Assembly: GCF_056746865.1 (NCBI RefSeq)
Contig: NZ_CM163382.1
Direction: 5' to 3' (one strand)
DNA length: 64,000 nucleotides
Shown: positions 17,090-36,501 of the stretch, piece by piece
Layout: every line of letters starts with the position of its first letter
Numbering within the stretch: position 1 is the stretch's first letter
Position numbers and translations under genes: made by a program
The notes under the pieces: generated by a model
The model's input: only the letters and a program-made list of their open reading frames with translations
Told to the model about the DNA's origin: nothing
Database searches by the model: none

Positions 17090-17100
17090 GGGCAAATCCA

Positions 17101-17105: not shown

Positions 17106-17220
17106 TAATATGAATGTTTTTATGGCCGTACTGGGAATAATTTTATTTTCTGGTTTTCTGGCCGCGTATTTCAGCCACAAATGGGATGACTAATGAACGG
17201 AGATAATCCCTCACCTAACC

Positions 17221-17259
17221 GGCCCCTTGTTACAGTTGTGTACAAGGGGCCTGATTTTT
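17221..17259 (+). terminator. intrinsic terminator of mgtS
   Basis: Perfect 10-bp stem GGCCCCTTGT / ACAAGGGGCC with an 11-nt loop, followed by TGATTTTT. Confidence 0.75.
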
Positions 17260-17267
17260 ATGACGGC

Positions 17268-17365
17268 AAAAAAAAACCGCCAGTAAACCGGCGGTGAATG
17301 CTTGCATGGATAGATTTGTGTTTTGCTTTTACGCTAACAGGCATTTTCCTGCACTGATAACGGAT
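17268..17365 (-). ncRNA. mgrR: putative PhoP-regulated sRNA MgrR (about 98 nt)
   Basis: Minus-strand hairpin CCGCCGG-UUUA-CUGGCGG followed by U9 (3' end near 17268); candidate -10 TACTGT (plus 17373-17378) puts the 5' end near 17365, giving about 98 nt; PhoP box upstream; location between mgtS and dgcZ. Boundaries are approximate. Confidence 0.5.
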
Positions 17366-17400
17366 CGTTGACACAGTAGCATCAGTTTTCTCAATGAATG

Positions 17401-17418
17401 TTAAACGGAGCTTAAACT
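17401..17418 (-). promoter_or_regulatory. PhoP box direct repeat (GTTTAA-N5-GTTTAA)
   Basis: The minus strand reads GAGTTTAAGCTCCGTTTAAC, matching the (T/G)GTTTA-N5-(T/G)GTTTA consensus; it overlaps the dgcZ stop codon and lies upstream of the putative mgrR. Confidence 0.55.
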
Positions 17419-18302
17419 CGGTTAATCACATTTTGTTCGTCAATAAACATACAGCGATTTCTTCCGGTTTGCTTACCCTCATACATTGCCCGGTCCGCTC
17501 TTCCAATGACCACATCCAGAGGTTCTTCAGGAAATGCGCGACTCACACCTGCAGTCACGGTAATGTTGATATGCCCTTCAGAATGTGTGATGGCATGGTT
17601 ATCGACTAACTGGCAAATTCTGATACCTGCACGACATGCTTCTTCATCATTAGCCGCTTTGACAATAATGATAAATTCTTCGCCACCGTAGCGATAAACC
17701 GTTTCGTAATCGCGCGTCCAACTGGCTAAGTAAGTTGCCAGGGTGCGTAATACTACATCGCCGATTAAATGCCCGTAGGTATCATTAACCAATTTAAATC
17801 GGTCAATATCCAACAACATTAAATAAAGATTCAGAGGCTCAGCGTTGCGTAACTGATGATCAAAGGATTCATCAAGAACCCGACGACCCGGCAATCCCGT
17901 CAAAACATCCATATTGCTACGGATCGTCAGCAAATAAATTTTGTAATCGGTTAATGCCGCAGTAAAAGAAAGCAACCCTTCCTGAAAGGCGTCGAAATGC
18001 GCGTCCTGCCAGTGATTTTCAACAATAGCCAACATTAATTCCCGACCACAGTTATGCATATGTTGATGGGCAGAATCCATTAGCCGAACGTAAGGTAATT
18101 CATCGTTATCGAGTGGTCCCAGATGATCAATCCACCGACCAAACTGGCACAGTCCATAAGAATGGTTATCCGTTATTTCTGGCTTACTGGCATCTCTCGC
18201 GACCACGCTGTGAAACATACTCACCAGCCACTGGTAGTGGGCATCGATAGCCTTATTGAGATTTAACAAGATGGCATCAATTTCCGTTGTCTTCTTGATC
18301 AT
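17412..18302 (-). CDS. dgcZ: zinc-sensing diguanylate cyclase DgcZ
   Basis: Start trimmed to MIKKTTEID (296 aa); C-terminal GGDEF (RYGGEEFII) and N-terminal zinc-binding-like region with His/Cys residues; corresponds to ydeH. Confidence 0.9.
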   Translation of the reverse strand: MIKKTTEIDAILLNLNKAIDAHYQWLVSMFHSVVARDASKPEITDNHSYGLCQFGRWIDHLGPLDNDELPYVRLMDSAHQHMHNCGRELMLAIVENHWQDAHFDAFQEGLLSFTAALTDYKIYLLTIRSNMDVLTGLPGRRVLDESFDHQLRNAEPLNLYLMLLDIDRFKLVNDTYGHLIGDVVLRTLATYLASWTRDYETVYRYGGEEFIIIVKAANDEEACRAGIRICQLVDNHAITHSEGHINITVTAGVSRAFPEEPLDVVIGRADRAMYEGKQTGRNRCMFIDEQNVINRV

Positions 18303-18556
18303 TGCCACTCCTTTTTCACAGTTCCTTGTGCGCGCTATTCTAACGAGAGAAAAGCAAAATTACGTCAATATTTTCATAGAAATCCGAAGTTATGAGTCAT
18401 CTCTGAGATAACATTGTGATTTGAAACAAAATCAGCAGATAAAAAAGTGTTTAATTCTGTAAATTAAGCCTGCATTATCGCAATTAAAAGGATGACAAAT
18501 AGCATAAACCAATACCCTAATGGCCCAGTAGTTCAGGCCATCAGGCTCATTTATTT

Positions 18557-18949
18557 TTATTTCTGCAAATGAGTGACCCGAACGACGGCCGGCGCGCTTT
18601 TCTTATCCAGACTGCCGCTAATGTTGATCATCTGGTCCGGCTGAACTTCTCGTCCATCAAAGACTGCCGCAGGAATAACAACATTAATTTCACCGCTCTT
18701 ATCGCGAAAAACGTAACGGTCCTCTCCTTTGTGAGAAATCAAATTACCGCGTAGTGAAACCGAAGCGCCATCATGCATGGTTTTTGCGAAATCTACGGTC
18801 ATTTTTTTTGCATCATCGGTTCCGCGATAGCCATCTTCTATTGCATGAGGCGGCGGTGGCGCTGCATCCTGTTTTAAACCGCCCTGGTCATCTGCCAACG
18901 CATAAGGCATGACAAGAAAACTTGCTAATACAATGGCCTGAAATTTCAT
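18557..18949 (-). CDS. ydeI: periplasmic OB-fold (YgiW/BOF family) stress protein
   Basis: 130-aa ORF with an N-terminal signal peptide ([19 protein letters not shown]). Confidence 0.85.
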
Positions 18950-19313
18950 ACTGACTCCTTAATTGCGTTTGGTTTGACTTATTAAGTCTGGTTGCTATTT
19001 TTATAATTGACAAATAAGAATACTGCCAATTGTTATAAGGCATTTAAAATCAGGCAACTAGCTGTCAAATATTAAGAGAATTTAACTCACTAAAGTAAGA
19101 AGAAGATTAAAGAGTCTTAAACATATTTCAGAACAATCAGATTTATAAATTTGAAAATTATTATAACGGAAGGGTATACAAAAAAAGTAATTTTGCTGGC
19201 GACTGCGAAACGGCATTCGCATTAGCGGTGAAGTTTGCCCCCACCCAGCTGCTGCAATTACTGCTCTAACCAGGCTGGCCTGGCGATATCTCCAGGCCAG
19301 CCATTGGTGGTGT

Positions 19314-21359
19314 TTATATGTTCAAGCCACGATGTTGCAGCATCGGCATAATCTGAGGTGCCTTACCGCGCCATTGTCGATACAGGCGTTCCAGATCTTC
19401 GCTGTTACCTCTGGAAAGAATCGCCTCGCGAAAACGCCGCCCATTTTCACGCGTTAATCCGCCCTGCTCAACAAACCACTGGTAACCATCATCGGCCAAC
19501 ATTTGCGTCCACAGATAAGCGTAATAACCTGCGGCATATCCGCCACCAAAAATATGGGCGAAATAACTGCTGCGATAGCGTGGCGGTATAGCGGGAAGAT
19601 CCATATTTTCTGCCACCAGCGCCCGCAATTCGAAATCATCGACATCCTGCATTGCTTCGTTTTCTTCCAGGCAATGCCAGCGCATATCGAGAAGTGCGGC
19701 GCTAAGCAGTTCGCTCATCTCATACCCTTTATTGAACAGGCTGGCATTACGCATTTTCTGTTGCAGTTCGTCAGGCATTGCTGCCCCGCTCTGATAATGC
19801 CGGGCGTAGCGAGCGAATACCTGCGGATGCGTTGCCCAGTGTTCGTTGATTTGCGACGGAAATTCGACAAAATCACGCGGCGTGTTGGTGCCGGAAAGTG
19901 TGGCATAACGCTGGCGGGCAAAGAGGCCGTGCAACGTATGACCAAATTCATGGAATAAGGTTATGACATCATCCCAGAGTAACAACGCAGGCTCACCGGC
20001 AGCGGGTTTCTGATAATTGCAGACGTTATAAATTACCGGATGCGTTTCATTAAGCGTTGATTGCTCAACAAAATTGCCCATCCATGCACCGCCGCTTTTT
20101 GAATCACGGGCGAAGAAATCACCGTAAAATAACGCCAGCCCCACGCCATTATGATCAAAAATTTCCCATACACGAACGTCAGGATGGTAGACAGGAATAT
20201 CAAAACGTTCGACAAACTTAATACCGAAGAGCTGATTCGCGGTCCAGAATACACCTTCATTCAACACCGTGTTTAATTCAAAATATGGCTTGAGCTGCGA
20301 TTCATCGAGATCGAATTTCTCACGTCTTACCTGCTCGGCATAAAATGCCCAGTCCCACGGCTGCGCGCTAAACCCGCCCTGCTGCTTATCGATAACCGCC
20401 TGTATGGAGGCTAATTCATCGCTCGCACGTTGACGCGCCGCTGGAACAATTTCCCGCATAAAGTTGAGTGCTGCTTCTGGCGTTTTTGCCATCTGATCGG
20501 CGATTTTCCATGCGGCATAATGAGGGAAACCAAGCAGTTTCGCCTGCTGCGCGCGGATCTCCACCAGACGTTGAATGATAGCGCGGGTATCATTGGCATC
20601 ATTTTTTTCCGCTCGCGTCCAGCCCGCAGTGAACAGTTTTTCACGCGTCGCGCGATCGCGCAGTTCAGCAAGCGCTGGTTGCTGGGTGGTATTCAGCAAC
20701 GGAATCAGCCATTTGTTATCCAGACCTTTCTCGCGAGCCGCCTCTGCCGCCAGCGCAATCTCTTGCTCACTCATTCCTGCCAGCTGCGCGAAATCGTTCA
20801 CAACCAGACCGCCGGATTTATTTGCTGCCAGTAACCGCTGGTTAAACTGGCTGGTCAGGGTCGCAGCTTCTGTATTCAGGACTTTTAATTTTGCTTTATC
20901 AGCTTGTGCAAGTTTGGCTCCGGCAAGGACAAAACGTTGATGAATGACCTCCACCAGGCGGATGGATTCACTATCAAGTCCCAGGGATTCACGGCGTTGC
21001 CAGACAGCATCTACCCGCGCGAATAATTCACCGTTCAGATAGATATCATTAGCCAGTTCCGCCAGTTCAGCGGAAAACTGTTCATCAAGACGCTGTAATT
21101 CATCATTAGTATGCGCCGCAGTCATCGCAAAAAAGACGCTGGTAACGCGGGTAAGTAATTCTCCGCTTTGTTCCAGTGCCAGAATAGTATTGTTGAAATC
21201 AGGTGTTTGCGGGTTAAGCGCGATGGCAGCAATTTCTGCCCGCTTTTGCTGCATTCCCTCATCGAATGCCGGGCGATAGTGATGATTGGCAATTTGATCA
21301 AAATGGGGAGCCAGATACGGCAGTGTGCTTTGCACAAGGAAAGGATTCATTGTTGTCAT
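19314..21359 (-). CDS. dcp: peptidyl-dipeptidase Dcp (M3 metallopeptidase)
   Basis: Start trimmed to MTTMNPFLVQ (681 aa); zinc motif HEFGHTLH present. Confidence 0.93.
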   Translation of the reverse strand: MTTMNPFLVQSTLPYLAPHFDQIANHHYRPAFDEGMQQKRAEIAAIALNPQTPDFNNTILALEQSGELLTRVTSVFFAMTAAHTNDELQRLDEQFSAELAELANDIYLNGELFARVDAVWQRRESLGLDSESIRLVEVIHQRFVLAGAKLAQADKAKLKVLNTEAATLTSQFNQRLLAANKSGGLVVNDFAQLAGMSEQEIALAAEAAREKGLDNKWLIPLLNTTQQPALAELRDRATREKLFTAGWTRAEKNDANDTRAIIQRLVEIRAQQAKLLGFPHYAAWKIADQMAKTPEAALNFMREIVPAARQRASDELASIQAVIDKQQGGFSAQPWDWAFYAEQVRREKFDLDESQLKPYFELNTVLNEGVFWTANQLFGIKFVERFDIPVYHPDVRVWEIFDHNGVGLALFYGDFFARDSKSGGAWMGNFVEQSTLNETHPVIYNVCNYQKPAAGEPALLLWDDVITLFHEFGHTLHGLFARQRYATLSGTNTPRDFVEFPSQINEHWATHPQVFARYARHYQSGAAMPDELQQKMRNASLFNKGYEMSELLSAALLDMRWHCLEENEAMQDVDDFELRALVAENMDLPAIPPRYRSSYFAHIFGGGYAAGYYAYLWTQMLADDGYQWFVEQGGLTRENGRRFREAILSRGNSEDLERLYRQWRGKAPQIMPMLQHRGLNI

Positions 21360-21495
21360 TTTCTTCTCCTGAACGCGAGGTGTTCCATAGCGTAGGCTTA
21401 CTGATAACGGAGTGCAATCTTGCAAACCAGTATTACCCGCTCTTAAGCATCACGTGCTATGTTATTGACACACAAAAGCGTTGAGGAACAGTGAG

Positions 21496-22242
21496 ATGAT
21501 CGTTTTAGTAACTGGAGCAACGGCAGGTTTTGGTGAATGCATTACTCGTCGTTTTATTCAACAAGGGCATAAAGTTATCGCCACTGGCCGTCGCCAGGAG
21601 CGGTTGCAGGAGTTAAAAGACGAACTGGGAGATAATCTTTATATCGCCCAACTGGACGTTCGCAACCGCGCCGCTATTGAAGAGATGCTGGCATCGCTTC
21701 CTGCCGAGTGGAGCAATATTGATATCCTGGTAAATAATGCCGGCCTGGCGTTGGGCATGGAGCCTGCGCATAAAGCCAGCGTTGAAGACTGGGAAACGAT
21801 GATTGATACCAACAATAAAGGCCTGGTATATATGACGCGCGCCGTCTTACCGGGTATGGTTGAACGTAATCATGGTCATATTATTAACATTGGCTCAACG
21901 GCAGGTAGCTGGCCGTATGCCGGTGGTAACGTTTACGGTGCGACGAAAGCGTTTGTTCGTCAGTTTAGCCTGAATCTGCGTACGGACCTGCATGGTACGG
22001 CGGTGCGCGTCACCGACATCGAACCGGGTCTGGTGGGTGGCACCGAGTTTTCCAATGTCCGCTTTAAAGGCGATGACGGTAAAGCGGAAAAAACCTATCA
22101 AAATACCGTTGCATTGACGCCAGAAGATGTCAGCGAAGCCGTCTGGTGGGTATCAACGCTGCCTGCTCACGTTAATATCAATACCCTGGAAATGATGCCG
22201 GTTACCCAAAGCTATGCCGGACTGAATGTCCACCGTCAGTAA
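21496..22242 (+). CDS. ydfG: NADP+-dependent 3-hydroxy acid dehydrogenase (SDR family)
   Basis: Start at MIVLVTGATAGFG (248 aa); Rossmann TGxxxGxG motif and YGATK active-site motif. Confidence 0.92.
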   Translation: MIVLVTGATAGFGECITRRFIQQGHKVIATGRRQERLQELKDELGDNLYIAQLDVRNRAAIEEMLASLPAEWSNIDILVNNAGLALGMEPAHKASVEDWETMIDTNNKGLVYMTRAVLPGMVERNHGHIINIGSTAGSWPYAGGNVYGATKAFVRQFSLNLRTDLHGTAVRVTDIEPGLVGGTEFSNVRFKGDDGKAEKTYQNTVALTPEDVSEAVWWVSTLPAHVNINTLEMMPVTQSYAGLNVHRQ

Positions 22243-22330
22243 TTTTTATACCCGGCGTAACTGCCGGGTTATTGCTTGTCACAAAAAAGTGGTAGACTCA
22301 TGCAGTTAACTCACTCACAAGCAAGAACGA

Positions 22331-23017
22331 ATGACCGTCGAAACGCAACTTAATCCCACACAGCCTGTCAATCAGCAGATTTATCGTATTCTTCGTCGCG
22401 ACATTGTCCATTGCCTGATTGCACCAGGCACACCGTTGTCGGAAAAAGAAGTTTCTGTTCGTTTCAATGTGTCACGCCAGCCGGTTCGTGAAGCCTTTAT
22501 TAAACTGGCGGAAAACGGCCTGATTCAAATTCGTCCGCAGCGTGGCAGCTACGTCAACAAAATTTCCATGGCCCAGGTGCGCAACGGCAGTTTTATCCGT
22601 CAGGCCATTGAGTGCGCGGTGGCGCGTCGGGCGGCGAGCATGATTACCGAAAGCCAGTGCTACCAACTGGAACAAAATCTTCACCAGCAACGCATTGCCA
22701 TTGAGCGCAAGCAACTGGATGATTTTTTTGAACTTGATGACAACTTCCATCAACTCCTGACGCAGATTGCCGACTGTCAACTGGCGTGGGATACCATTGA
22801 GAACCTGAAAGCGACCGTTGATCGCGTGCGCTATATGAGTTTCGACCACGTTTCTCCACCAGAAATGCTGTTACGCCAGCATCTTGAGATTTTCTCTGCC
22901 CTGCAAAAACGTGATGGCGATGCGGTAGAACGTGCAATGACGCAACATTTGCAGGAAATCAGCGAATCCGTGCGCCAGATCCGCCAGGAAAACAGCGACT
23001 GGTTTAGCGAAGAGTAA
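22331..23017 (+). CDS. rspR: GntR/FadR-family transcriptional regulator
   Basis: 228-aa ORF with an N-terminal winged-HTH (ydfH); synteny. Confidence 0.88.
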
Positions 23018-23193
23018 TTCATTTCCTCTCATCCCATTCGGGGTGAGAGTCTCTCCCCCCGCCTTATGGCTCATGCATGCATCAAAAAAGATGTGAGCTT
23101 GATCAAAAACAAAAAATATTTCACTCGACAGGAGTATTTATATTGCGCCCGTTACGTGGGCTTCGACTGTAAATCAGAAAGGAGAAAACACCT

Positions 23194-23397
23194 ATGACGA
23201 CCTACGATCGTAACCGTAACGCAATCACCACTGGCAGCCGTGTTATGGTTAGCGGCACCGGTCACACTGGCAAGATCCTGTCGATTGATACTGAAGGTCT
23301 GACCGCTGAGCAAATCCGCCGCGGAAAAACCGTAGTTGTTGAAGGTTGTGAAGAGAAACTGGCACCTCTGGACCTGATTCGTCTCGGCATGAACTAA
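23194..23397 (+). CDS. ydfZ: small protein YdfZ (putative selenium-binding)
   Basis: 67-aa ORF preceded by a strong SD (GGAGAA); synteny. Confidence 0.8.
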
Positions 23398-23432
23398 GCG
23401 TGTGAATGCCGCCGATGGCGGCATTGCTTTTT

Positions 23433-24893
23433 TTACTTCACGGAATATTTCGCAACGGTCGCTTTCGCACCATGCGCTAATAAAGACAAGTACGCTTCCG
23501 TCACTTTTGCAGTAAACAAGCTATTGTCTGGCAAATCATCACCAAAGATCGCCTTAATCGCCAGCAATGACTGGACGCGCGCTTTCCCTTCGGCACTACT
23601 TTGTACAGCCTTCTGAATAACAGGTAACAGTGGGTCACTGATTTCTATCGGATTTCCCTGTTCATCAACACCACCGACATAACGCATCCAACCTGCGACG
23701 CCCAGCGCCAGCAGATCGAACTTGCTGTCATGCGCCAGATGCCAGCGAACAGAATCCAACATCCGCTGTGGCAATTTCTGGCTGCCATCCATCGCAATCT
23801 GCCAGGTTCGATGACGTAGCGCCGGGTTGCTATAGCGTTCAATTAATCGGTTAGCGTAATCTTGCAAATCAACGCCCTGCACTTTCAACGTCGGCGCTTG
23901 TTCCTGCAACATCAAGGCATACGCTGCATGACGATAATGTTCATCTTCCATGCAGTCATTAATGTGCTGATATCCGGCAAGATACCCCAGATACGCCAGG
24001 AATGAATGACTGCCGTTGAGCATGCGCAACTTCATCTCTTCATAAGGCAGCACATCACTAACCAGTTCGGCTCCCGCTTTTTCCCATTCCGGACGTCCGG
24101 CAACAAAGTTATCTTCTATTACCCACTGGCGGAAAGGTTCACAGGCAACGCCAGCAGGATCGCGCACACCGGTAAGTTGTTCGATTTTCGCCAGCGTATC
24201 CTCTGTCACTGCGGGCACAATACGGTCCACCATTGTTGATGGGAAAGTCACGTTTACTTCGATCCATTGTGCCAGTTTTACATCAACAGCTTGCGCGTAG
24301 GAAGTGACAACGTCACGCATAACATGACCGTTTTCTGGCATGTTGTCACATGACATGACGGTAAATGCGGGAAGTCCTGCCGCTTTACGGCGAGCCAGCG
24401 CCTCAACAATCACCCCTGTTGCAGTTTTCGGCTGGTGGGGATTTTGCACGTCGGCAGCGACCATCGGGTGATCGAGCATTAACTGTCCGGTCGCCGGAGA
24501 GTGGAAATACCCTTTTTCGGTGATTGTCAGAGAGACAATCGCGATTTGCGGTTCACACATCGCAGCCAACACGGTTTCTAAGCCATCTATCTGTACGTGC
24601 AAGGCTTTTTTAACGACGCCAACGACGCGAGCCGTCCACGCATCGGCCGACATTTCCGCAACGGTATAAAGATTATCTTGCTGTTGTAAATCGGCAATTT
24701 GCTGTTCGCCGCCGATTAAATTGACCTCATAATATCCCCAATCACTGAAATGTTTTGTAGCAAGAATATCGGCATACACGCCCTGATGCGCACGGTGAAA
24801 TGCGCCAAAGCCTAAATGAACAATTCTTGGGGCCAAGTTATTACGATCATAAACAGGGAGCGTCGCTTTTGCTGATAACAAATTATTTCCCAT
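23433..24893 (-). CDS. ydfI: mannitol dehydrogenase-family oxidoreductase
   Basis: 486-aa ORF; Rossmann-type N-terminus ([12 protein letters not shown]); synteny. Confidence 0.88.
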
Positions 24894-24982
24894 AACAATT
24901 CCTTAAATTTAAATATGGCAAGCTGCATGTTTTGTTATATGAATAAAAAATCCCCTCTCCGGTAAGAGAAGGGATGGAGGAT

Positions 24983-26350
24983 TTACAGACTTCTTGAAGG
25001 TTGCGCAGCTGTTACAACACGCGGTTGATCTTCCGCGGCATCTTCCAGTGCACTTAAATCACGGTCTCTCACTTCTGGCATTTTCAGCGCAGAGATTAAA
25101 CCAATCACTGAATATGCCATGATCATAATGGCGATCGGATACCAGGATTCCGTCATGGTGCAGAAAATACCCGCCAGGATAGGACCAAAACCGGAAGCGA
25201 TAAGACCACCAATTTCTTTAGAAATCGCCATCCGGGTAAAGCGGTTTTTACAGCCGAACATTTCTGCCATGGTAATGTTTTCCAGAGCAAATAATCCCAG
25301 CACCGCACAGTTATGAATCACAATCAGTGCAACCATAATGGTGCTCGGGGCATAGCTTTTATCTACGATGATAGAAAGCATTGGCCACGCCAGCACAATC
25401 GCAGAGGTATTCATAATAATATACGGGATCCGGCGACCTATTTTATCGGATAACCAACCAAGGAACGGAATGGTCATAAAGCCGAGAATCGAACTGATCA
25501 TCAATGCATCTGTTGGAATTGCTTTGTTAAACAATAACGTCTGCACTAAATAGCCTGCAAGGAAAGTCTGAATTAAACCGGAGTTACCAGCCTGACCAAA
25601 ACGCAGCCCTGTTGCCAGCCAGAAGGATTTGCTCTGGAACATGCTACCAGCAGGTGCAGGTTTTGCTGTCGGTTGGTTGCTGTCGTTAACCTTCTCAAAG
25701 ACCGGGCTTTCTTTCAGATTCATACGCAACCAGATAGCAAAGACCATCACGACAACGCTCGCCAGGAACGGTATACGCCATCCCCACGCAAGCAGTTCCT
25801 CTTTACTGAGAATGAAGAACATAAAGGCCCAGATTGCCGTTGCGCTCAAGGTTCCGCAGTTAGTCCCCATAGCAACAAATGAGGAGATAATTCCGCGCTT
25901 ACCTTTTGGTGCATATTCCGCCAGCATCGTGCCGGCACCGGAAATTTCCGCGCCTGCCCCCAGCCCCTGAATAATACGCAGCGTCACCAGCAAAATTGGC
26001 GCAAACACACCAATTTGTGCATAGGTCGGCAGCACACCAATTAAGGTAGTACAGATCCCCATCATAGTGATGGTAATAAAGAGCACTTTTTTACGCCCGA
26101 TTCTGTCGCCCATTTTGCCGAAAATAAATGCTCCGACAATACGCGCCACATAACCTGCACCGTAGGTTCCCATTGCCAGAATTAACGCCATTGCCGTTGA
26201 TGATTCAGGAAAAAATATTTCATGAAACACTAACGCTGCGCCGAGCGAATATAACTGGAAATCCATAAATTCAAGCGCAGTGCCCAGCCATCCCGATACT
26301 GCTGCTTTCACCAAATCCTTAGTGCTTCTTTCGTGTTTTTCTATTGTCAT
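24983..26350 (-). CDS. ydfJ: MFS metabolite:H+ symporter, full-length
   Basis: 455-aa uninterrupted ORF with multiple TM segments, immediately upstream of rspB. Confidence 0.88.
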   Translation of the reverse strand: MTIEKHERSTKDLVKAAVSGWLGTALEFMDFQLYSLGAALVFHEIFFPESSTAMALILAMGTYGAGYVARIVGAFIFGKMGDRIGRKKVLFITITMMGICTTLIGVLPTYAQIGVFAPILLVTLRIIQGLGAGAEISGAGTMLAEYAPKGKRGIISSFVAMGTNCGTLSATAIWAFMFFILSKEELLAWGWRIPFLASVVVMVFAIWLRMNLKESPVFEKVNDSNQPTAKPAPAGSMFQSKSFWLATGLRFGQAGNSGLIQTFLAGYLVQTLLFNKAIPTDALMISSILGFMTIPFLGWLSDKIGRRIPYIIMNTSAIVLAWPMLSIIVDKSYAPSTIMVALIVIHNCAVLGLFALENITMAEMFGCKNRFTRMAISKEIGGLIASGFGPILAGIFCTMTESWYPIAIMIMAYSVIGLISALKMPEVRDRDLSALEDAAEDQPRVVTAAQPSRSL

Positions 26351-26407
26351 AATGGTTATCTCTAAAAAAGAGGTAAGATGCGTACTACTTACTCGCCGTT
26401 ATTGGTA

Positions 26408-27427
26408 TTATTCAGAAAAAGTGAGTAAGACTTTGCAGCAATGCTTTTGATCCTGTTCAAATAAACTAATGGCATCAGCAACATGCTGGAAATCAAACGT
26501 ATGGGTAATTAGTTTTTCTGGTTTAATTAACCCTTTACTTAACCAGTCGATAACGACCGGGAATTTATTTGCATTTAAGCGTGAAGAGAAAATAGAGAGT
26601 TCTTTTCCGGTAATTCCTTGCTGAATCACTTCAGACGGTTCACTGGAGAAGCCCATCAATACAATACGTGCCGCTGGAGAAGCCAGCGTTACGGCTTCTT
26701 TCAGGATTGAAGGATGACAAGCCGCATCGATAATTAATGTCGGCTTTATGCCTTTTTCAGCGAAAATCTCGCCAAGCGGTGTCTGGCTGTTATTAATCGC
26801 CCAGTCTGCCCCGCTCTCTTTCGCTTTTTCCAGTCGTTCATCAATGCGATCGGCAACAATCACATTCTTAACGTTATAGACGCCTTTTAATACCTGAACG
26901 ATCGTCAGGCCGATTGGACCGGCACCGTAAACCAGAACGGTATCATTTTCAGTCGGTTGACCATGACCGGTAACGTTAGCCGCAATGGTAAAAGGTTCGA
27001 TCATCACCGCATATTGATCGGCCACTGCTTCAGGAATTTTCCACGCATTTTTTGCCGGCACCACGGCATATTCACTGAAACCACCGTCAGCGTGCACACC
27101 TAATACAGCCAGTGTCGTACAAACGTTCGGCTTACCTATAGAGCACGGATAGCAATGCCCACAGCTGACCACCGGATCGACAGCAACGCGTTCACCGACT
27201 CTGGCGCTTTCCACGCCTTCACCCACTGCATCAATGACGCCAAAGAATTCATGACCAATGACGCGCGGATATTTCGCAAAAGGATTATGCCCACGATAAA
27301 TATGGCTATCTGAACCACAAATTCCGGCAAGTTTCACTTTTACTCGTACTTCACCCGCTGACGGGGTGGGTATTTCGCGTTCGATAATTGCCAGTTGATT
27401 CGGTTTTTCAATTAAAATGCTTTTCAT
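26408..27427 (-). CDS. rspB: starvation-sensing protein RspB (zinc-dependent dehydrogenase)
   Basis: Start trimmed to MKSILIEK (339 aa); zinc-ADH motifs GHEFFGVI and CGHCYPC. Confidence 0.92.
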   Translation of the reverse strand: MKSILIEKPNQLAIIEREIPTPSAGEVRVKVKLAGICGSDSHIYRGHNPFAKYPRVIGHEFFGVIDAVGEGVESARVGERVAVDPVVSCGHCYPCSIGKPNVCTTLAVLGVHADGGFSEYAVVPAKNAWKIPEAVADQYAVMIEPFTIAANVTGHGQPTENDTVLVYGAGPIGLTIVQVLKGVYNVKNVIVADRIDERLEKAKESGADWAINNSQTPLGEIFAEKGIKPTLIIDAACHPSILKEAVTLASPAARIVLMGFSSEPSEVIQQGITGKELSIFSSRLNANKFPVVIDWLSKGLIKPEKLITHTFDFQHVADAISLFEQDQKHCCKVLLTFSE

Positions 27428-27438
27428 TATCTTACTCC

Positions 27439-28653
27439 TTACCAGTTCCACAGCGTGCCATCTTCCAGACGTGCGACTGGCAGATAAGCAGGTTCATAGG
27501 GATATTTCGCCGCCAGCTTTTCATCGAATTCGATGCCAAGACCCGGTTTGTCTCCCGGATGCATATAGCCGTTATCGAAAGTCCAGTTGTGCGGGAAGAC
27601 TTCAAGCATTTGTTCGGAATAACCCATGTATTCCTGGACACCGAAATTGGGGACCCACAGATCAAAGTGCAGCGCCGCAGCCATGCAGACTGGTGACAAA
27701 TCGGAAGGACCGTGTGAGCCAGTACGTACCTGATACAACGAAGCAAAATCGGCAATCCGGCGCATACCGGTAATTCCGCCTGCATGGGTCAGCGTGGTGC
27801 GGATATAATCGATAAGTTGCTCTTCAATCAGTTGCTTGCAGTCCCAGATGCTGTTGAAGACTTCACCCACCGCGATGGGTGTGACGGTATGTTGGCGAAT
27901 GAGACGGAAGCATTCCTGGTTTTCCGCAGGCGTCGGGTCTTCCATCCAGAACATGCGATAATCTTCAATGCTTTTACCAAAGCGCGCCGCTTCAATAGGC
28001 GTTAAGCGATGGTGCATGTCATGCAGCAAATGTTCATTAAAACCAAACTTGTTACGTACCGCGTCAAACAATTTCGGCATGAAATCGAGGTATTTCTCCG
28101 TCGACCACAACTGCTCTTCCGGCCACTGTCCTTTGGTTGCGGGTTCATAAGCCAGACCTTTGCCTTTCGACATGCCGTAGGTGGTTTTCATACCAGGGAT
28201 TCCGCACTGCACGCGGATGGCTTTGAATCCCAGCTCCTGATGACGGGCATAATCATCCAGAGCTTCATCAATACTGTGACCGGTGGTATGGCAATAAACC
28301 ATCACCCCTTCACGAGACGCGCCGCCGAGTAACTGGTAAAGCGGCATGTTGGCAGCTTTGGCTTTAATATCCCACAGCGCCATATCAACCGCTGAAATGG
28401 CCGACATCGTCACCGGACCGCGACGCCAGTAAGCACCTTTATAGAAAAACTGCCAGATATCTTCGATACGGTGTGCATCGCGACCAATAAGCTGCGGACA
28501 AAGGTGATCCTGCAAATAAGAGGCCACGGAAAGCTCACGTCCATTGAGGGTGGCATCCCCAAGGCCCGTAATACCGTCCTCAGTGGTGATTTTTAATGTG
28601 ACGAAATTACGCCCCGGACAGGTAACAAAAACTTCAGCCTTTACGATCTTCAT
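27439..28653 (-). CDS. rspA: starvation-sensing protein RspA (enolase-superfamily mannonate dehydratase-like)
   Basis: Start trimmed to MKIVKAEVF (404 aa); operon with rspB. Confidence 0.92.
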
Positions 28654-28858
28654 GTTCGATTCCTTGCATCGCTTGTCGTGATGCATGAAATCTACGCAAC
28701 TGAGCTACTACCATACAAGTATGAAGATCGAAAAAAGCCGGAGTGATCACAAAAAAAGGCGTATATTTGCGCCGTGAATGGTTGACAAAAGATGAAATAG
28801 AATACCTTTTGTCAGCTGACACTTCCTTGTATCTTATTGATAAAATGGATTTATGTCC

Positions 28859-29185
28859 TTACGCGCGCCCCCAGCCCGCAACAATGATCAACATGCCGCA
28901 AAGCGCAATCAACGCCCCCGTCCAGTCATAAAGACTCAGTTTCACGCCATCCACAACGCGCAGCCACATCAACGCCGTGCAGACATAAACGCCACCATAA
29001 GCCGCGTAAACACGCCCACTCGCCGCAGGATGCAACGTTAACAACCAGACAAACAGTGCCAGAGAAATCCCCGCCGGAAGCAACAGCCAGATACTGGCGT
29101 TTCGTTTTAACCACAACCAGGGCAGAAAGCATCCAATAATTTCACACAGCGCAGTAGCAAAAAATAGTAACGTTGTTTTAATCAT
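28859..29185 (-). CDS. ynfA: UPF0060-family small inner membrane protein
   Basis: 108-aa hydrophobic ORF from MIKTTLLFF; synteny. Confidence 0.85.
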
Positions 29186-29319
29186 CTTTGTCACTTATTG
29201 ACATCATGTATAGTTATAGGACGACATAATATCATCAATATAAACATCCTCCTGGTACGTTTTGCGTTCGCAGTGGATGGTGTAGAATCACCTTTAATCA
29301 TTCATACAGGGAATGAATT

Positions 29320-29661
29320 ATGAAAATTACTCTCAGCAAACGAATTGGCCTGCTCGCTTTTCTGCTGCCTTGCGCACTGGCATTGAGCACAACTGTTCAT
29401 GCCGAAACTAACAAACTGGTGATTGAGTCTGGCGACAGTGCGCAAAGCCGCCAGCACGCCGCTATGGAAAAAGAGCAATGGAATGACACGCGCAATCTGC
29501 GCCAGAAAGTGAATAAACGCACTGAAAAAGAGTGGGATAAAGCCGACGCCGCTTTTGATAACCGCGATAAATGTGAGCAAAGCGCCAACATCAATGCCTA
29601 CTGGGAGCCAAATACTTTGCGCTGCCTGGACCGTCGAACTGGCCGCGTTATTACCCCCTAA
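29320..29661 (+). CDS. ynfB: DUF1283-family secreted protein
   Basis: 113-aa ORF with an N-terminal signal peptide. Confidence 0.85.
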
Positions 29662-29695
29662 CCTGTTATTGATTTAAGGAATGTAAGGACACGTT

Positions 29696-30256
29696 ATGCC
29701 AAGCGCCCACAGTGTTAAGCTACGCCCGCTGGAGCGTGAAGATTTACGCTATGTACATCAACTCGACAATAACGCCAGTGTGATGCGTTACTGGTTTGAG
29801 GAACCCTACGAAGCCTTTGTTGAACTCTCTGATCTGTACGATAAGCATATTCACGATCAGAGCGAACGGCGCTTTGTGGTGGAATGTGACGGCGAAAAAG
29901 CCGGTCTGGTGGAGCTGGTGGAAATTAACCATGTTCATCGCCGCGCAGAATTTCAGATAATTATCTCCCCGGAATATCAGGGGAAAGGTCTGGCAACGCG
30001 TGCCGCAAAATTAGCAATGGACTATGGCTTCACCGTTCTCAATCTCTATAAGCTGTATCTGATCGTCGATAAAGAGAATGAAAAAGCGATACACATTTAC
30101 CGCAAGCTTGGCTTTACGGTTGAAGGTGAATTGATGCATGAGTTCTTTATTAATGGTCAATATCGGAATGCCATTCGCATGTGCATATTCCAGCATCAGT
30201 ATCTGGCAGAGCACAAAACACCGGGTCAGACTCTCCTGAAGCCGACCGCACAATAG
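29696..30256 (+). CDS. speG: spermidine N1-acetyltransferase (GNAT)
   Basis: 186-aa ORF recognised as SpeG; synteny. Confidence 0.93.
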
Positions 30257-30258
30257 CA

Positions 30259-30969
30259 TTAATAATAATCGATAGTATTTTTGATGGTGTAAACCCGTTC
30301 GATGGCGGGTTTTACTCCTTCATCAACAATGATTAGCTGACAGTCCACCGGATTGGCGTGACTGTCATATTCACAGCTCTGTTTTACATTACCAACTCTT
30401 TGATTATTCAGTATAGTAACCGCTGTGTAATCTAATTTTTTGATCGGGTCCGTTGATGGCGTGGCGCTAACAGATAATGTTTTGTCGTGACTTTTCGTGG
30501 TTTTACCCAGCGGATACCCCTGATCATCATAGCGATATTCCATCTGCATCTGTTTGCTGCTGGCTTTAATCACAAAGCCATTATCATCGGTTTCCCAACT
30601 CACCCCGGCAGAAGGTAATTCTGCTAGCTGGCATTTTCCCTGCAAACGAACTCTTTTCTCCAGTGTCTGGGCATCACGGTAATAATTGGCGTCCAGTACC
30701 AGGGCAACCACGGTATTATTTTCCAGATCCAGTAATTCGAGTGAATCAAAACAGCCTTCTTCCGACAAAGTCCCCGAAACACGTTTCGTCACTTCACCTT
30801 GCTCATCCATTAATGTCTGAGTGAAATCTTTTACCGGACCACGCAGCGGATCAAAATCGAATTCATTAGAGAAACTGGCCATCTCAGGGGTAAATGAAAG
30901 TGTTACCTCTGTTCGGTCACATCCTGTGAGGAATATCGCGAGTAAGCATGGCAGTAATTTGTATTTCAC
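30259..30969 (-). CDS. ynfC: UPF0257-family lipoprotein
   Basis: Probable GTG start giving MKYKLLPCLLAIFLTGC (lipobox LTGC), 236 aa; the ORF track extends it upstream. Confidence 0.8.
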   Translation of the reverse strand: MKYKLLPCLLAIFLTGCDRTEVTLSFTPEMASFSNEFDFDPLRGPVKDFTQTLMDEQGEVTKRVSGTLSEEGCFDSLELLDLENNTVVALVLDANYYRDAQTLEKRVRLQGKCQLAELPSAGVSWETDDNGFVIKASSKQMQMEYRYDDQGYPLGKTTKSHDKTLSVSATPSTDPIKKLDYTAVTILNNQRVGNVKQSCEYDSHANPVDCQLIIVDEGVKPAIERVYTIKNTIDYY

Positions 30970-31076
30970 AACAGTCACCAGAGAGTAGAGATGATTCTCA
31001 ATCATAGTAGCAAATACAGTACTTTACACGTTAAATGCTATGCTTAAAGAAGTTATCTTCGCGTAAGGAGCTTATG

Positions 31077-31382
31077 ATGAAACTCTCAACCTGCTGTGCC
31101 GCGCTTCTGCTCGCCCTCGCCTCACCCGCGGTACTCGCCGCGCCGGGATCCTGTGAGCGCATACAGAGCGATATATCACAGCGCATTATCAATAATGGCG
31201 TACCCGAAAGCAGCTTCACGTTAAGTATTGTACCCAATGACCAGGTTGATCAGCCTGATTCCCAGGTCGTCGGGCATTGCGCTAATGATACGCATAAAAT
31301 TCTCTACACCCGCACCACCAGCGGTAACGTCTCTGCTCCCGCGCAGTCTACCCAGGATGGCGCGCCTGCCGAACCGCAGTAA
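31077..31382 (+). CDS. ynfD: DUF1161-family secreted protein
   Basis: Start at MKLSTCCAALLLALASPAVLA (signal peptide), preceded by SD AAGGAG; 101 aa. Confidence 0.85.
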   Translation: MKLSTCCAALLLALASPAVLAAPGSCERIQSDISQRIINNGVPESSFTLSIVPNDQVDQPDSQVVGHCANDTHKILYTRTTSGNVSAPAQSTQDGAPAEPQ

Positions 31383-31580
31383 CACATTATCGACTGAACG
31401 CCGGATACGACACATCCGGCGATTTGAACATACAACATAATCCCACCTTATTACTCATACCCTTCTATTGATATGGATTAATAATTCTTAACCCAAAATG
31501 GGTAGACTCCCTCTATTGTTAGCGCGCTAAATATTCAATATATAAACTTTTATATAACGATAAAGATCAGGGAGTGAGTT

Positions 31581-34007
31581 ATGTCCAAAAATGAACAAAT
31601 GGTGGGCATCAGCCGCAGAACACTCGTTAAATCTACCGCGATAGGTTCTCTGGCGCTGGCTGCAGGCGGTTTTTCTTTACCGTTCACCCTGCGCAGTGCA
31701 GCGGCAGCGGTACAGCAGGCCAGCGAGAAAGTGGTCTGGGGTGCCTGTTCCGTCAACTGTGGTAGCCGCTGTGCACTTCGTCTGCATGTTAAAGATAATG
31801 AAGTGACCTGGGTGGAAACTGACAACACCGGCAACGACGAGTATGGCAATCATCAAGTACGTGCCTGTTTGCGCGGTCGCTCCATCCGTCGGCGTATTAA
31901 TCATCCCGATCGCTTGAATTACCCAATGAAACGCGTGGGCAAACGCGGCGAAGGCAAATTCGAACGGATTAGCTGGGATGAAGCCCTGGATACTATCGCC
32001 AGTAGCCTGAAAAAAACCGTCGAACAATATGGCAATGAGGCTGTATATATTCAGTACTCTTCAGGGATCGTTGGCGGCAATATGACCCGCTCTTCGCCAT
32101 CCGCCTCGGCGGTCAAACGCCTGATGAACTGCTACGGCGGTTCACTCAACCAGTATGGCTCCTACAGCACCGCGCAAATTTCCTGTGCCATGCCCTACAC
32201 CTACGGCAGTAATGATGGCAACAGCACCACGGATATTGAAAACAGCAAGCTGGTCGTGATGTTTGGTAACAACCCGGCAGAAACCCGCATGAGCGGCGGT
32301 GGCATCACTTATCTTCTTGAAAAAGCGCGCGAGAAATCGAACGCAAAAATGATTGTTATCGATCCGCGATATACCGATACAGCTGCTGGTCGTGAAGACG
32401 AATGGCTACCTATTCGCCCGGGCACCGATGCCGCGCTGGTTGCGGGTATTGCCTGGGTATTGATTAACGAAAATCTCGTTGATCAACCTTTTCTCGATAA
32501 ATACTGCGTCGGCTATGACGAAAAAACCTTACCCGCAGATGCACCAAAAAATGGTCACTATAAAGCCTATATTCTTGGTGAAGGAGACGACAAAACAGCG
32601 AAAACGCCGCAGTGGGCTTCGCAAATTACCGGTATCCCGGTGGACCGTATCATCAAACTGGCGCGTGAAATTGGCACAGCAAAACCCGCTTATATCTGCC
32701 AGGGCTGGGGACCGCAACGCCAGGCAAACGGCGAGCTGACTGCACGCGCTATTGCGATGTTGCCTATTCTGACGGGCAATGTCGGCATCAGCGGCGGAAA
32801 TAGTGGCGCGCGTGAATCGACCTATACCATTACCATAGAACGCCTACCGGTGCTGGATAATCCGGTCAAAACGTCAATCTCCTGCTTCAGCTGGACAGAT
32901 GCTATCGATCATGGCCCGCAAATGACGGCAATCCGCGACGGTGTCCGGGGCAAAGATAAACTGGATGTGCCCATTAAGTTCATCTGGAACTACGCGGGAA
33001 ATACCCTCGTTAATCAGCATTCTGACATCAACAAAACGCATGAAATTCTGCAGGACGAATCGAAATGCGAAATGATTGTGGTCATCGAAAACTTTATGAC
33101 CTCATCGGCAAAATATGCCGACATTCTGCTGCCAGACCTGATGACCGTTGAGCAGGAAGATATTATTCCTAACGACTACGCCGGTAACATGGGATATCTC
33201 ATTTTCCTCCAGCCTGTCACCAGCGAAAAATTCGAACGCAAACCGATTTACTGGATCCTGAGTGAAGTCGCGAAACGTCTTGGACCTGAAGTCTATCAAA
33301 AGTTCACTGAAGGTCGCACTCAGGAACAATGGTTACAACATCTGTACGCCAAAATGCTTGCCAAAGATCCGGCGTTACCGTCTTACGACGAATTAAAAAA
33401 AATGGGTATCTATAAGCGTAAAGATCCCAATGGTCATTTTGTCGCCTACAAAGCATTTCGTGACGACCCCGAGGCAAATCCACTTAAAACGCCTTCCGGT
33501 AAGATTGAAATTTACTCCAGCAAGCTGGCGGAAATTGCCCGTACCTGGGAACTGGAAAAAGATGAAGTGATAAGCCCACTGCCGGTTTATGCCTCAACCT
33601 TTGAAGGCTGGGACTCCCCTGAACGTAGTACCTTTCCACTGCAACTGTTTGGTTTCCATTACAAATCCCGTACTCACTCGACCTACGGCAACATTGATGT
33701 CCTGAAGGCAGCCTGCCGTCAGGAAGTGTGGATCAACCCTATAGATGCACAGAAACGTGGGATTGCCAACGGCGATATGGTGCGGGTGTTTAACCATCGT
33801 GGCGAAGTTCGGCTACCAGCCAAAGTGACACCACGCATTCTCCCTGGGGTTAGCGCTATGGGCCAGGGAGCCTGGCACGAGGCCAATATGTCTGGCGATA
33901 AAATCGACCATGGCGGCTGTGTGAATACGCTAACCACTCTGCGCCCTTCACCACTGGCGAAGGGAAACCCGCAGCACACTAATCTGGTCGAGATCGAAAA
34001 AATATAA
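31581..34007 (+). CDS. ynfE: Tat-exported molybdopterin oxidoreductase catalytic subunit (DMSO-reductase family, DmsA paralog; selenate reductase)
   Basis: 808 aa; twin-arginine motif SRRTLVKS; N-terminal cysteine cluster CSVNCGSRC; molybdoenzyme domains. Confidence 0.93.
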   Translation: MSKNEQMVGISRRTLVKSTAIGSLALAAGGFSLPFTLRSAAAAVQQASEKVVWGACSVNCGSRCALRLHVKDNEVTWVETDNTGNDEYGNHQVRACLRGRSIRRRINHPDRLNYPMKRVGKRGEGKFERISWDEALDTIASSLKKTVEQYGNEAVYIQYSSGIVGGNMTRSSPSASAVKRLMNCYGGSLNQYGSYSTAQISCAMPYTYGSNDGNSTTDIENSKLVVMFGNNPAETRMSGGGITYLLEKAREKSNAKMIVIDPRYTDTAAGREDEWLPIRPGTDAALVAGIAWVLINENLVDQPFLDKYCVGYDEKTLPADAPKNGHYKAYILGEGDDKTAKTPQWASQITGIPVDRIIKLAREIGTAKPAYICQGWGPQRQANGELTARAIAMLPILTGNVGISGGNSGARESTYTITIERLPVLDNPVKTSISCFSWTDAIDHGPQMTAIRDGVRGKDKLDVPIKFIWNYAGNTLVNQHSDINKTHEILQDESKCEMIVVIENFMTSSAKYADILLPDLMTVEQEDIIPNDYAGNMGYLIFLQPVTSEKFERKPIYWILSEVAKRLGPEVYQKFTEGRTQEQWLQHLYAKMLAKDPALPSYDELKKMGIYKRKDPNGHFVAYKAFRDDPEANPLKTPSGKIEIYSSKLAEIARTWELEKDEVISPLPVYASTFEGWDSPERSTFPLQLFGFHYKSRTHSTYGNIDVLKAACRQEVWINPIDAQKRGIANGDMVRVFNHRGEVRLPAKVTPRILPGVSAMGQGAWHEANMSGDKIDHGGCVNTLTTLRPSPLAKGNPQHTNLVEIEKI

Positions 34008-34067
34008 CCCACTACAACCATAAATTCTGACATGACATTTTGTTTGAAAAGCAATAAGTGAGTAATG

Positions 34068-36491
34068 ATGAAAATCCATACCACAGAGGCGCTCATGAAG
34101 GCTGAAATCAGCCGTAGAAGTCTGATGAAAACCTCCGCACTTGGCAGTCTCGCGCTGGCAAGCAGTGCTTTCACTCTGCCATTTTCCCAAATGGTCCGAG
34201 CGGCAGAGGTACCGGTAGAAGAGAAAGCGGTCTGGAGTTCCTGCACCGTTAACTGCGGGAGCCGCTGTCTGTTACGTTTGCATGTGAAAGATGACACCGT
34301 GTACTGGGTGGAGTCTGATACGACAGGTGACGACGTCTACGGTAATCATCAGGTTCGGGCGTGTTTACGCGGACGCTCTATCCGTCGACGGATGAATCAT
34401 CCTGATAGGTTGAAATATCCCATGAAGCGTGTCGGCAAGCGCGGTGAAGGTAAATTTGAACGGATAAGTTGGGACGAAGCCCTGGATACCATCAGTGATA
34501 ATCTTCGGCGGATCCTAAAAGATTACGGCAATGAGGCTGTACATGTTCTCTATGGAACAGGCGTAGATGGCGGAAACATCACCAACTCAAACGTCCCGTA
34601 CCGTCTGATGAACTCTTGCGGTGGTTTTCTCAGTCGCTATGGCAGCTACAGTACCGCACAGATCAGTGCCGCAATGAGTTATATGTTCGGTGCCAATGAT
34701 GGCAACAGCCCGGATGATATCGCCAATACGAAACTGGTCGTTATGTTCGGAAATAACCCGGCAGAAACTCGGATGAGCGGCGGTGGTGTCACTTACTACG
34801 TCGAGCAAGCCCGAGAACGTTCAAATGCACGCATGATCGTCATCGATCCACGTTATAACGACACAGCTGCCGGACGTGAAGATGAATGGCTGCCCATTCG
34901 CCCTGGCACCGATGGAGCACTGGCCTGTGCGATTGCCTGGGTACTGATTACTGAAAACATGGTCGATCAGCCATTTCTCGACAAATATTGTGTTGGTTAC
35001 GATGAAAAAACGCTGCCCGCCAACGCACCACGTAACGCGCATTATAAAGCCTATATTCTGGGCGAAGGGCCTGACGGCATAGCTAAAACGCCGGAATGGG
35101 CAGCAAAAATCACCAGCATACCGGCAGAAAAAATTATCCATTTGGCACGAGAGATCGGTTCAGCAAAACCTGCTTATATTTGTCAGGGTTGGGGGCCACA
35201 ACGACACTCCAACGGCGAACAAACGTCCCGCGCTATTGCCATGCTTTCCGTTCTCACCGGTAACGTCGGCATAAACGGCGGCAACTCAGGTGTACGCGAA
35301 GGTAGCTGGGATCTGGGGGTAGAATGGTTCCCGATGCTTGAGAATCCTGTTAAAACGCAGATTTCCGTCTTTACATGGACAGATGCCATCGACCACGGTA
35401 CGGAAATGACCGCGACCCGTGATGGTGTTCGTGGAAAAGAAAAACTGGATGTCCCCATCAAGTTTTTATGGTGCTACGCCAGTAACACATTGATCAATCA
35501 ACATGGCGACATCAATCACACCCATGAGGTGCTTCAGGATGACAGCAAGTGCGAGATGATTGTTGGCATTGACCACTTCATGACTGCCTCGGCTAAGTAT
35601 TGCGATATCCTGTTGCCCGACCTGATGCCAACAGAGCAAGAAGACCTTATCTCTCACGAATCTGCCGGGAATATGGGCTATGTGATCCTCGCCCAACCCG
35701 CAACCTCAGCAAAATTTGAACGCAAACCCATCTACTGGATGCTGAGTGAAGTTGCCAAACGCTTAGGACCAGACGTTTATCAAACCTTTACTGAAGGTCG
35801 CAGTCAGCATGAATGGATCAAATATCTCCATGCGAAAACGAAGGAACGTAACCCTGAGATGCCCGACTACGAGGAGATGAAAACGACCGGGATCTTTAAG
35901 AAAAAATGCCCGGAAGAACACTACGTCGCTTTCCGCGCATTCCGTGAAGATCCACAGGCAAACCCGTTGAAAACACCTTCGGGGAAAATCGAAATTTATT
36001 CTGAACGACTGGCGACGATTGCGGATACCTGGGAATTGAAAAAAGATGAAATTATTCATCCCCTTCCTGCGTATACCCCAGGTTTTGATGGCTGGGACGA
36101 TCCCCTGCGGAAAACCTATCCACTGCAGTTAACGGGCTTCCACTACAAAGCGCGTACCCACTCCAGCTACGGCAATATTGATGTGTTACAGCAGGCCTGC
36201 CCACAAGAGGTGTGGATCAACCCTATTGATGCTCAGGCACGCGGTATCCGTCATGGCGATACCGTGCGGGTATTTAACAATAATGGAGAAATGCTGATTG
36301 CCGCAAAAGTGACTCCGCGTATTCTGCCTGGCGTTACCGCCATCGGGCAAGGTGCGTGGCTTAAAGCGGATATGTTTGGTGACCGGGTCGATCACGGCGG
36401 CAGTATCAATATTCTGACCTCTCACCGCCCTTCACCGCTGGCAAAGGGAAACCCGTCGCACAGCAATCTTGTCCAGATCGAAAAGGTTTAA
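34068..36491 (+). CDS. ynfF: Tat-exported molybdopterin oxidoreductase catalytic subunit (DmsA paralog)
   Basis: 807 aa from MKIHTTEAL; twin-arginine motif SRRSLMKT; close paralog of ynfE in tandem. Confidence 0.93.
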   Translation: MKIHTTEALMKAEISRRSLMKTSALGSLALASSAFTLPFSQMVRAAEVPVEEKAVWSSCTVNCGSRCLLRLHVKDDTVYWVESDTTGDDVYGNHQVRACLRGRSIRRRMNHPDRLKYPMKRVGKRGEGKFERISWDEALDTISDNLRRILKDYGNEAVHVLYGTGVDGGNITNSNVPYRLMNSCGGFLSRYGSYSTAQISAAMSYMFGANDGNSPDDIANTKLVVMFGNNPAETRMSGGGVTYYVEQARERSNARMIVIDPRYNDTAAGREDEWLPIRPGTDGALACAIAWVLITENMVDQPFLDKYCVGYDEKTLPANAPRNAHYKAYILGEGPDGIAKTPEWAAKITSIPAEKIIHLAREIGSAKPAYICQGWGPQRHSNGEQTSRAIAMLSVLTGNVGINGGNSGVREGSWDLGVEWFPMLENPVKTQISVFTWTDAIDHGTEMTATRDGVRGKEKLDVPIKFLWCYASNTLINQHGDINHTHEVLQDDSKCEMIVGIDHFMTASAKYCDILLPDLMPTEQEDLISHESAGNMGYVILAQPATSAKFERKPIYWMLSEVAKRLGPDVYQTFTEGRSQHEWIKYLHAKTKERNPEMPDYEEMKTTGIFKKKCPEEHYVAFRAFREDPQANPLKTPSGKIEIYSERLATIADTWELKKDEIIHPLPAYTPGFDGWDDPLRKTYPLQLTGFHYKARTHSSYGNIDVLQQACPQEVWINPIDAQARGIRHGDTVRVFNNNGEMLIAAKVTPRILPGVTAIGQGAWLKADMFGDRVDHGGSINILTSHRPSPLAKGNPSHSNLVQIEKV

Positions 36492-36501
36492 GGAGTAGCC
36501 C

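Follow-up and report, generated by a model that had tools for sequence, protein, structure and literature searches.

We conclude with high confidence that the 64-kb stretch of DNA analyzed here (the window) carries an unoccupied phage attachment site (attB) within ydfJ, that rspA, rspB, and ydfJ are contiguous at this locus, and that YdfJ is most likely a complete symporter and importer, the expression, transport activity, and substrate of which we infer from the sequence. We establish the anatomy of this site, map its att sequence, and determine how frequently the site is empty or occupied in the E. coli population. With no prophage at ydfJ, the three genes form one uninterrupted string behind the RspR-controlled rspA promoter, followed after a hairpin by ydfI, with the regulator gene rspR just beyond. 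With its N-terminus and its context for transcription and translation all native, YdfJ would most likely be made as a complete 12-helix metabolite:H+ symporter. This protein would probably import a sugar acid that is processed by RspB (a dehydrogenase), YdfI (a fructuronate reductase), and RspA (a D-mannonate dehydratase) along a three-step route that ends at 2-keto-3-deoxygluconate. A phage with a tyrosine integrase has recombined at the segment TCCATAA in K-12 and in the majority of other E. coli, and its insertion leaves ydfJ without promoter, ribosome-binding site, and codons 1–28.

The ydfJ Locus in the Window and in K-12

The list of open reading frames contains ydfJ as an uninterrupted 455-codon ORF with an ATG start on the minus strand (24983..26350). 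The upstream gene rspB (26408..27427, minus strand), which codes for a Zn-dependent dehydrogenase, ends at 26408 and leaves a spacer of 57 bp (26351..26407, minus strand). No phage gene or Qin-like DNA was found between ydfJ and rspB. The first-pass annotation had described an intact 455-codon ydfJ that starts 57 bp from the rspB stop without any phage genes in between, and all three elements of this description proved correct. Reading of the spacer revealed a weak Shine-Dalgarno sequence (GAGA) 9–12 nt before the ydfJ ATG, and a simple consensus scan of the same segment detected no promoter-like or terminator-like site.

The gene rspA (27439..28653, minus strand) codes for an enolase-superfamily protein of the D-mannonate dehydratase (ManD) family. 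The three genes rspA, rspB, and ydfJ point in the same direction and are separated by 11 and 57 bp, respectively. On the other side of ydfJ are ydfI (23433..24893, minus strand), which codes for a mannitol-dehydrogenase-family enzyme of the fructuronate reductase subfamily, and rspR (ydfH; 22331..23017, plus strand), which codes for the GntR/FCD-family repressor of rspAB (PMC8249747). All five ORFs are full length in the window. RefSeq genomes that are 100% identical to the window over 24500..27000, for example M7424, carry annotations for ydfI, ydfJ ("MHS family MFS transporter YdfJ"), and rspB, and rspR is also annotated in identical genomes.

The gene order in E. coli K-12 MG1655 is ydfI, ydfJ (b1543), Qin, ynfP (b4534), and rspB (b1580). 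The feature annotated as "cryptic prophage Qin" (1632277..1652745) has a length of 20,469 bp (20.5 kb) and lies between ydfJ and ynfP/rspB. By blastn, positions 24000..26273 of the window align to the ydfJ side of MG1655 with 97.2% identity, and positions 26255..28000 align to the rspB side with 98.3% identity. The two alignments abut and overlap at 26255..26273, where the host sequence of the window is continuous. This comparison, which the first-pass annotation had proposed as a check, maps the attachment point within ydfJ to 26258..26273. Both the MG1655 annotation and the split alignment agree with the earlier assertion that Qin separates ydfJ from rspB in K-12, and this strain does not contain an intact ydfJ contiguous with rspB, because Qin sits between the two genes.

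The description of K-12 ydfJ as a pseudogene stood only in part. The gene is indeed truncated, but MG1655 RefSeq does not label it a pseudogene and lists ydfJ as a 427-aa CDS (1631002..1632285) together with ynfP, a 36-codon N-terminal stub next to rspB. MG1655 ydfJ lacks its original promoter and starts at the codon for Met29 of the full-length protein, and the first 28 ydfJ codons survive beside rspB inside ynfP. In every other occupied strain that we opened, PGAP labels the same truncated ydfJ as a pseudogene ("missing N-terminus").

Comparison of the Qin interior with the 64-kb window by blastn and tblastx returned matches to an IS2 copy alone (15770..17100). Qin genes (dicB, dicF, relBE, cspB/F/I, intQ, and others) were not found in this stretch, and the IS2 copy, the sole Qin-similar DNA in the window, is unrelated to the prophage.

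This insertion is the most unusual feature of the window. The element is complete (1331 bp, ORFs at 15816..16226 and 16184..17089 on the plus strand), is inserted after codon 2–3 of mgtS, a gene for a small protein, between two CTGGG target duplications (15765..15769 and 17101..17105), and separates mgtS and mgtT from their promoter. A GTG ORF (17074..17193) that opens within the end of IS2 continues in frame into the 30 MgtS codons left beyond the insertion. The insertion is absent from K-12 and from M7424, which is otherwise 99.95–99.98% identical to the window, and the IS2-mgtS junction is spanned by none of 5426 complete E. coli genomes. The insertion looks private to the window strain. 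Just downstream of the disrupted mgtS-mgtT pair, the Hfq-binding sRNA STnc560 (MgrR region; 17187..17400, minus strand; 281 bits) is intact; no other Rfam match in the window reaches the gathering threshold.

Two further segments differ from K-12. A stretch of 498 bp (4511..5008) that is absent from K-12 comprises the 5' part of the diguanylate cyclase gene dgcF (yneF) and its upstream region. This gene measures 1419 bp in the window and in M7424 ("sensor domain-containing diguanylate cyclase") and 948 bp in K-12, and the K-12 version appears to be N-terminally deleted. At 19187..19190, a K-12 segment of 477 bp (1624735..1625211, most of ydeJ) has no counterpart in the window, and at the same spot M7424 is annotated with no more than a short pseudogene remnant ("2-oxo-tetronate isomerase, missing N-terminus").

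Mapping and Occupancy of the Attachment Site

The segment common to both K-12 alignments is GAAATCCATAAATTCA (26258..26273, ydfJ codons 26–31). Together with the junction alignments, this overlap defines the attB core for Qin/mEp460-type lambdoid phages as GAAATCCATAA(ATTCA). The core has a single match in the 64-kb window at up to two mismatches (0.06 expected by chance), and its flanks on both sides correspond to the host arms of the junctions in K-12 and in the occupied strain M16807. Joining the two K-12 phage arms gave a rebuilt attP of 616 bp. This sequence is contiguous in the free phages PhiR42_1, mEp460_ev081, HannyBb, and Tritos, with 98–99.5% identity and 100% coverage. In all four phages attP adjoins the integrase gene, and in mEp460_ev081 the excisionase gene is next to it. 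The attP of mEp460_ev081 reads exactly CTCTTGAAATCCATAATTCACAGG. Contiguous host sequence, a single core, and the match of this core to the attP of real phages support the earlier proposal that the window contains an unoccupied attachment locus.

The readable ydfJ-side junctions have the form CTGGAA[A/G]TCCATAA-TTCA followed by phage sequence. The phage arm begins with CAGG in K-12, EC31, ML35, and M16807, and with CAGA or TAGA in 30EVA2 and CV261. These junctions contain two A's where attB has three. The rspB-side junction is CTCTTGAAATCCATAAATTCAAGCG. Host alleles of the CFT073 type are distinguished by a synonymous A-to-G exchange inside the core, giving GAAGTCCATAA. M16807 is occupied and has an allele of this type. 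Its ydfJ-side junction contains the host G at the equivalent of window position 26261, its rspB-side junction contains the phage A at this position, and the AA/AAA indel segregates the opposite way. Since the SNP and the A-indel segregate oppositely in M16807, strand exchange most likely occurs within TCCATAA (26262..26268), which corresponds to ydfJ nucleotides 83–89 in codons 28–30. The overlap region of tyrosine recombinases is usually seven bases long. Nakamura et al. (2021, PMC8112680) took attB from a strain with an empty site and reported an att of 18 or 19 bp for ydfJ phages. Our mapping is consistent with this att and somewhat narrower.

We also considered whether the phage supplies an in-frame ydfJ start (MGKNTCEF-MDFQ...) that is broken in K-12 by a 1-base deletion. 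This idea was ruled out by the AA form, which puts an in-frame TGA two codons before Met29. Since this form is common to all readable ydfJ-side junctions and to the attP of mEp460_ev081, we take AA to be the native phage arm.

A related attP arm was found in Stx2a-converting phages. In 15 records, the integrase-side arm (int 3' end and spacer) is ~90% identical up to the core. The single record that we opened, Stx2a_PV98-693 (LC727850.1, about 300..400), contains the core CTCTTGAAATCCATAA and then a shorter opposite arm. Judging from this similarity, Stx2a-converting phages probably target ydfJ too.

The occupancy of the site was surveyed by counting genomes with one match covering at least 80% of the query among 5426 complete E. 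coli genomes. The empty site, represented by a 400-bp query centered on the core, is present in 2006 genomes (37%). The K-12-type ydfJ-side junction occurs in 3168 (58%) and the K-12-type rspB-side junction in 2707 (50%) of the same 5426 genomes. Among the remaining records listed, the 400-bp query breaks at positions 190–208, which correspond to window positions 26255..26273. The occupant in M16807 (NZ_CP031256.1) is a 45.4-kb, apparently complete Qin-like lambdoid prophage (4095..49544 of the record) with intact int, xis, terminase, portal, capsid, and tail genes, as well as the Qin-typical genes dicB, hokD, rem, cspB/I, and pinQ. The Qin element of K-12 is a 20.5-kb remnant of a lambdoid prophage of this type. 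In CV261, the occupant has DinI-like and DUF1076 genes at its end.

Previous reports have named ydfJ as the gene that harbors Qin in strains W, K-12, B, and Crooks (PMC3032704) and have located a lambda-like prophage between ydfJ and rspB in SE11 (PMC2608844). Also described before are the position of Qin at the ydfJ 5' end, where 28 codons and the promoter are lost, as well as the att sequence and phage-free strains (PMC6379469, PMC8249747, PMC8112680). The empty ydfJ site is a common, ordinary variant that was already known.

YdfJ and the rspAB Gene Cluster

In agreement with the first-pass assignment of ydfJ as an MFS transporter gene, the protein matches the Pfam families MFS_1 (4.4e-37) and Sugar_tr as well as TIGR00883 (metabolite/H+ symporter; 462.9 bits, curated cut-off 443.45). 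Residues 23–418 of YdfJ cover positions 1–400 of the 400 positions of the TIGR00883 model. With this end-to-end match above the cut-off, YdfJ corresponds to the family model of the MHS transporters (TC 2.A.1.6), which include ShiA, ProP, and KgtP. In contrast, the scores against the equivalog models for ShiA (270 vs 538 bits) and ProP (224 vs 544 bits) are well below the respective cut-offs, and because of these low scores the substrate of YdfJ would differ from those of ShiA and ProP. The sequence GTALEFMDF (residues 23–31) aligns with model positions 1–9, and the region of the conserved G-x-x-x-E-F/W-x-D-F motif is complete. The truncated YdfJ of K-12 begins at model position 7. Kyte-Doolittle hydropathy analysis gave no clear boundaries for the amphipathic first helix of YdfJ. 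A search by sequence for a solved homologue found no PDB relative at E ≤ 1e-5.

Between lineages, ydfJ evolves with a dN/dS of 0.01–0.03, a value in which occupied and empty lineages are inseparable, the truncated copies being identical to intact alleles. This ratio indicates that ydfJ is under strong purifying selection between lineages. Since YdfJ in the window is full length, resides in its native context, covers the family model completely, and has this low dN/dS, it is plausibly functional as a sugar-acid importer.

The neighboring genes code for enzymes with clear family assignments. RspB (339 aa) matches the equivalog model NF007489 over its full length (694.7 bits, 1–339 of 339) and the Pfam families ADH_N and ADH_zinc_N; its next-best NCBIfam matches include L-idonate 5-dehydrogenase. 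RspA matches the ManD equivalog NF043051 with 744 bits and NF011654 with 819.9 bits, both at full length. YdfI matches NF011611 (650.4 bits, cut-off 603) along with Mannitol_dh and Mannitol_dh_C, and RspR matches GntR and FCD. By these family matches, a ManD dehydratase, a fructuronate reductase, a Zn-dependent dehydrogenase, a transporter, and a GntR regulator are co-located in the window. The families plausibly fit a route from an imported sugar acid to D-fructuronate, then to D-mannonate, and finally to 2-keto-3-deoxygluconate, with YdfJ as the importer. L-Gulonate has reportedly been assigned to the cluster of CFT073, which would point to this compound as the probable substrate, and the pathway in that strain is said to be cryptic.

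The motif ATACNNGTAT occurs once in the window, as the RspR box ATACAAGTAT at 28713..28722, ~60 bp upstream of the rspA start. The RspR motif and the footprinted operator are known to lie upstream of rspA (PMC8249747). The distance between rspR and this putative operator is ~5.6 kb in the window and 26 kb in K-12 (PMC8249747). A simple consensus scan upstream of rspA detected no sigma-70-like promoter. Within the 89-bp spacer between ydfJ and ydfI, a terminator-like hairpin with a T-run follows the ydfJ stop (24950..24975, minus strand). It consists of an 11-pair stem and a subsequent TTTTTTATT, and has a predicted folding energy of -16.4 kcal/mol (z = -2.78). Because this strong terminator-like structure follows ydfJ, co-transcription of ydfI is uncertain. 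The arrangement speaks against simple co-transcription of ydfI with rspAB-ydfJ; ydfI may have a transcript of its own or be reached by read-through.

Intactness of a gene does not by itself guarantee a phenotype, and a substantial minority probability goes to the alternative that ydfJ is intact yet physiologically silent, that rspAB-ydfJ-ydfI constitutes a cryptic or relic pathway, and that prophage occupancy is nearly neutral. Such neutrality would account for the observation that ~60% of E. coli tolerate disruption of ydfJ, given the share of complete genomes that carry the disrupting ydfJ-side junction. The truncated ydfJ of CV261 has a further frameshift, and the reportedly cryptic nature of the CFT073 pathway points in the same direction. 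On the other hand, the low dN/dS across lineages argues for long-term constraint on YdfJ; in the window, moreover, none of the five genes is disrupted and the RspR operator is preserved. We favor the reading of YdfJ as a complete importer within a contiguous gene cluster.

History of the Site and Relation to Known Systems

Codons 29–455 of the window ydfJ (24983..26266) do not differ in a single base from the truncated ydfJ of EC31, an occupied strain (414..1697 of the compared stretch). Similarly, the intact ydfJ of CFT073 is identical to the truncated one of M16807, which is also occupied. Since intact and truncated alleles are identical, occupancy flips within lineages faster than ydfJ diverges, in a time too short for even one substitution in this gene. 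These allele pairs indicate that prophage gain and loss at ydfJ is recent and recurrent.

From such turnover one could suspect that the site in the window was vacated by a Qin-like prophage and is not a never-used site. We consider this history possible but rather unlikely. The prophage could have been lost by precise excision through integrase and excisionase, which would regenerate attB free of scars, or by homologous recombination with DNA from an empty-site strain that replaced the occupied locus. Occupancy that changes faster than the gene itself, with EC31 sharing the window allele and M16807 sharing the CFT073 allele, is consistent with this possibility. Full-length prophages with intact integrase and excisionase genes do reside at ydfJ, as exemplified by the element in M16807, and free phages with a ydfJ attP exist. 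However, recent integration into EC31-like strains accounts for the identity equally well. Precise excision is traceless, and the sequence fits a never-used and a vacated site alike. Finally, the core in the window contains the host-type AAA and no phage-derived base. The identity of this core to that of alleles found occupied, such as the EC31 allele, suggests that a phage could integrate at the site.

Considerably less probable is the notion that excision-competent Qin/mEp460-type prophages in ydfJ act as a reversible switch for an operon of sugar-acid import and breakdown, with the empty site as the "ON" state in which the RspR-regulated genes rspAB-ydfJ are transcribed together and the lysogen as the "OFF" state. 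The polymorphism of 37% empty and 58% occupied genomes would then stem from selection for this metabolic capacity and not from neutral phage traffic. If this were true, the empty site would be a ready landing pad for Stx2a-converting phages with the same core. That the contiguity is an assembly artefact from which a prophage was collapsed out is exceedingly improbable, given that 2006 closed genomes contain this sequence in the same uninterrupted form, many of them with 100% identity over 2.5 kb, and that the reading frame passes cleanly through the junction, where there is only one att core.

With an unoccupied attB in ydfJ as the preferred reading, the gene should be annotated here as a full-length 455-aa gene, and rspA-rspB-ydfJ(-ydfI) together with rspR as one contiguous regulon, unlike the split layout of K-12. 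Empty-site strains, and not K-12, would be the right background for tests of YdfJ transport and of the RspAB/YdfI pathway. Temperate phages of the mEp460 kind could integrate at the free attB, which, judging from the shared core and the related integrase-side arm, may also serve some Stx2a-converting phages. Beyond correct annotation, the significance of the empty site is small.

A close reference point is the ydfJ::Qin locus of K-12. Window and K-12 share the chromosomal locus, the att core, 97–98% nucleotide identity on both sides, and the same flanking genes (dcp, ydfG, rspR, ydfZ, and ydfI on one side; rspB, rspA, and ynfA on the other). In contrast to the window, K-12 carries the 20,469-bp Qin remnant between the equivalents of window positions 26268 and 26269, and its ydfJ is preceded by an in-frame TGA two codons upstream of Met29 that the window ydfJ does not have. 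The mEp460-type phages are the phage partners of attB, and none is present in the window. The attP sites of mEp460_ev081, PhiR42_1, HannyBb, and Tritos contain the same 11-bp core GAAATCCATAA as the window, flanked by exactly the phage arms of the K-12 junctions. An uninterrupted ydfJ beside rspB is also present in C227-11, an O104:H4 strain (Nakamura et al. 2021, PMC8112680), and in CFT073. Both deviate from the window at this locus by allelic differences only, such as the CFT073-type A-to-G exchange in the core.
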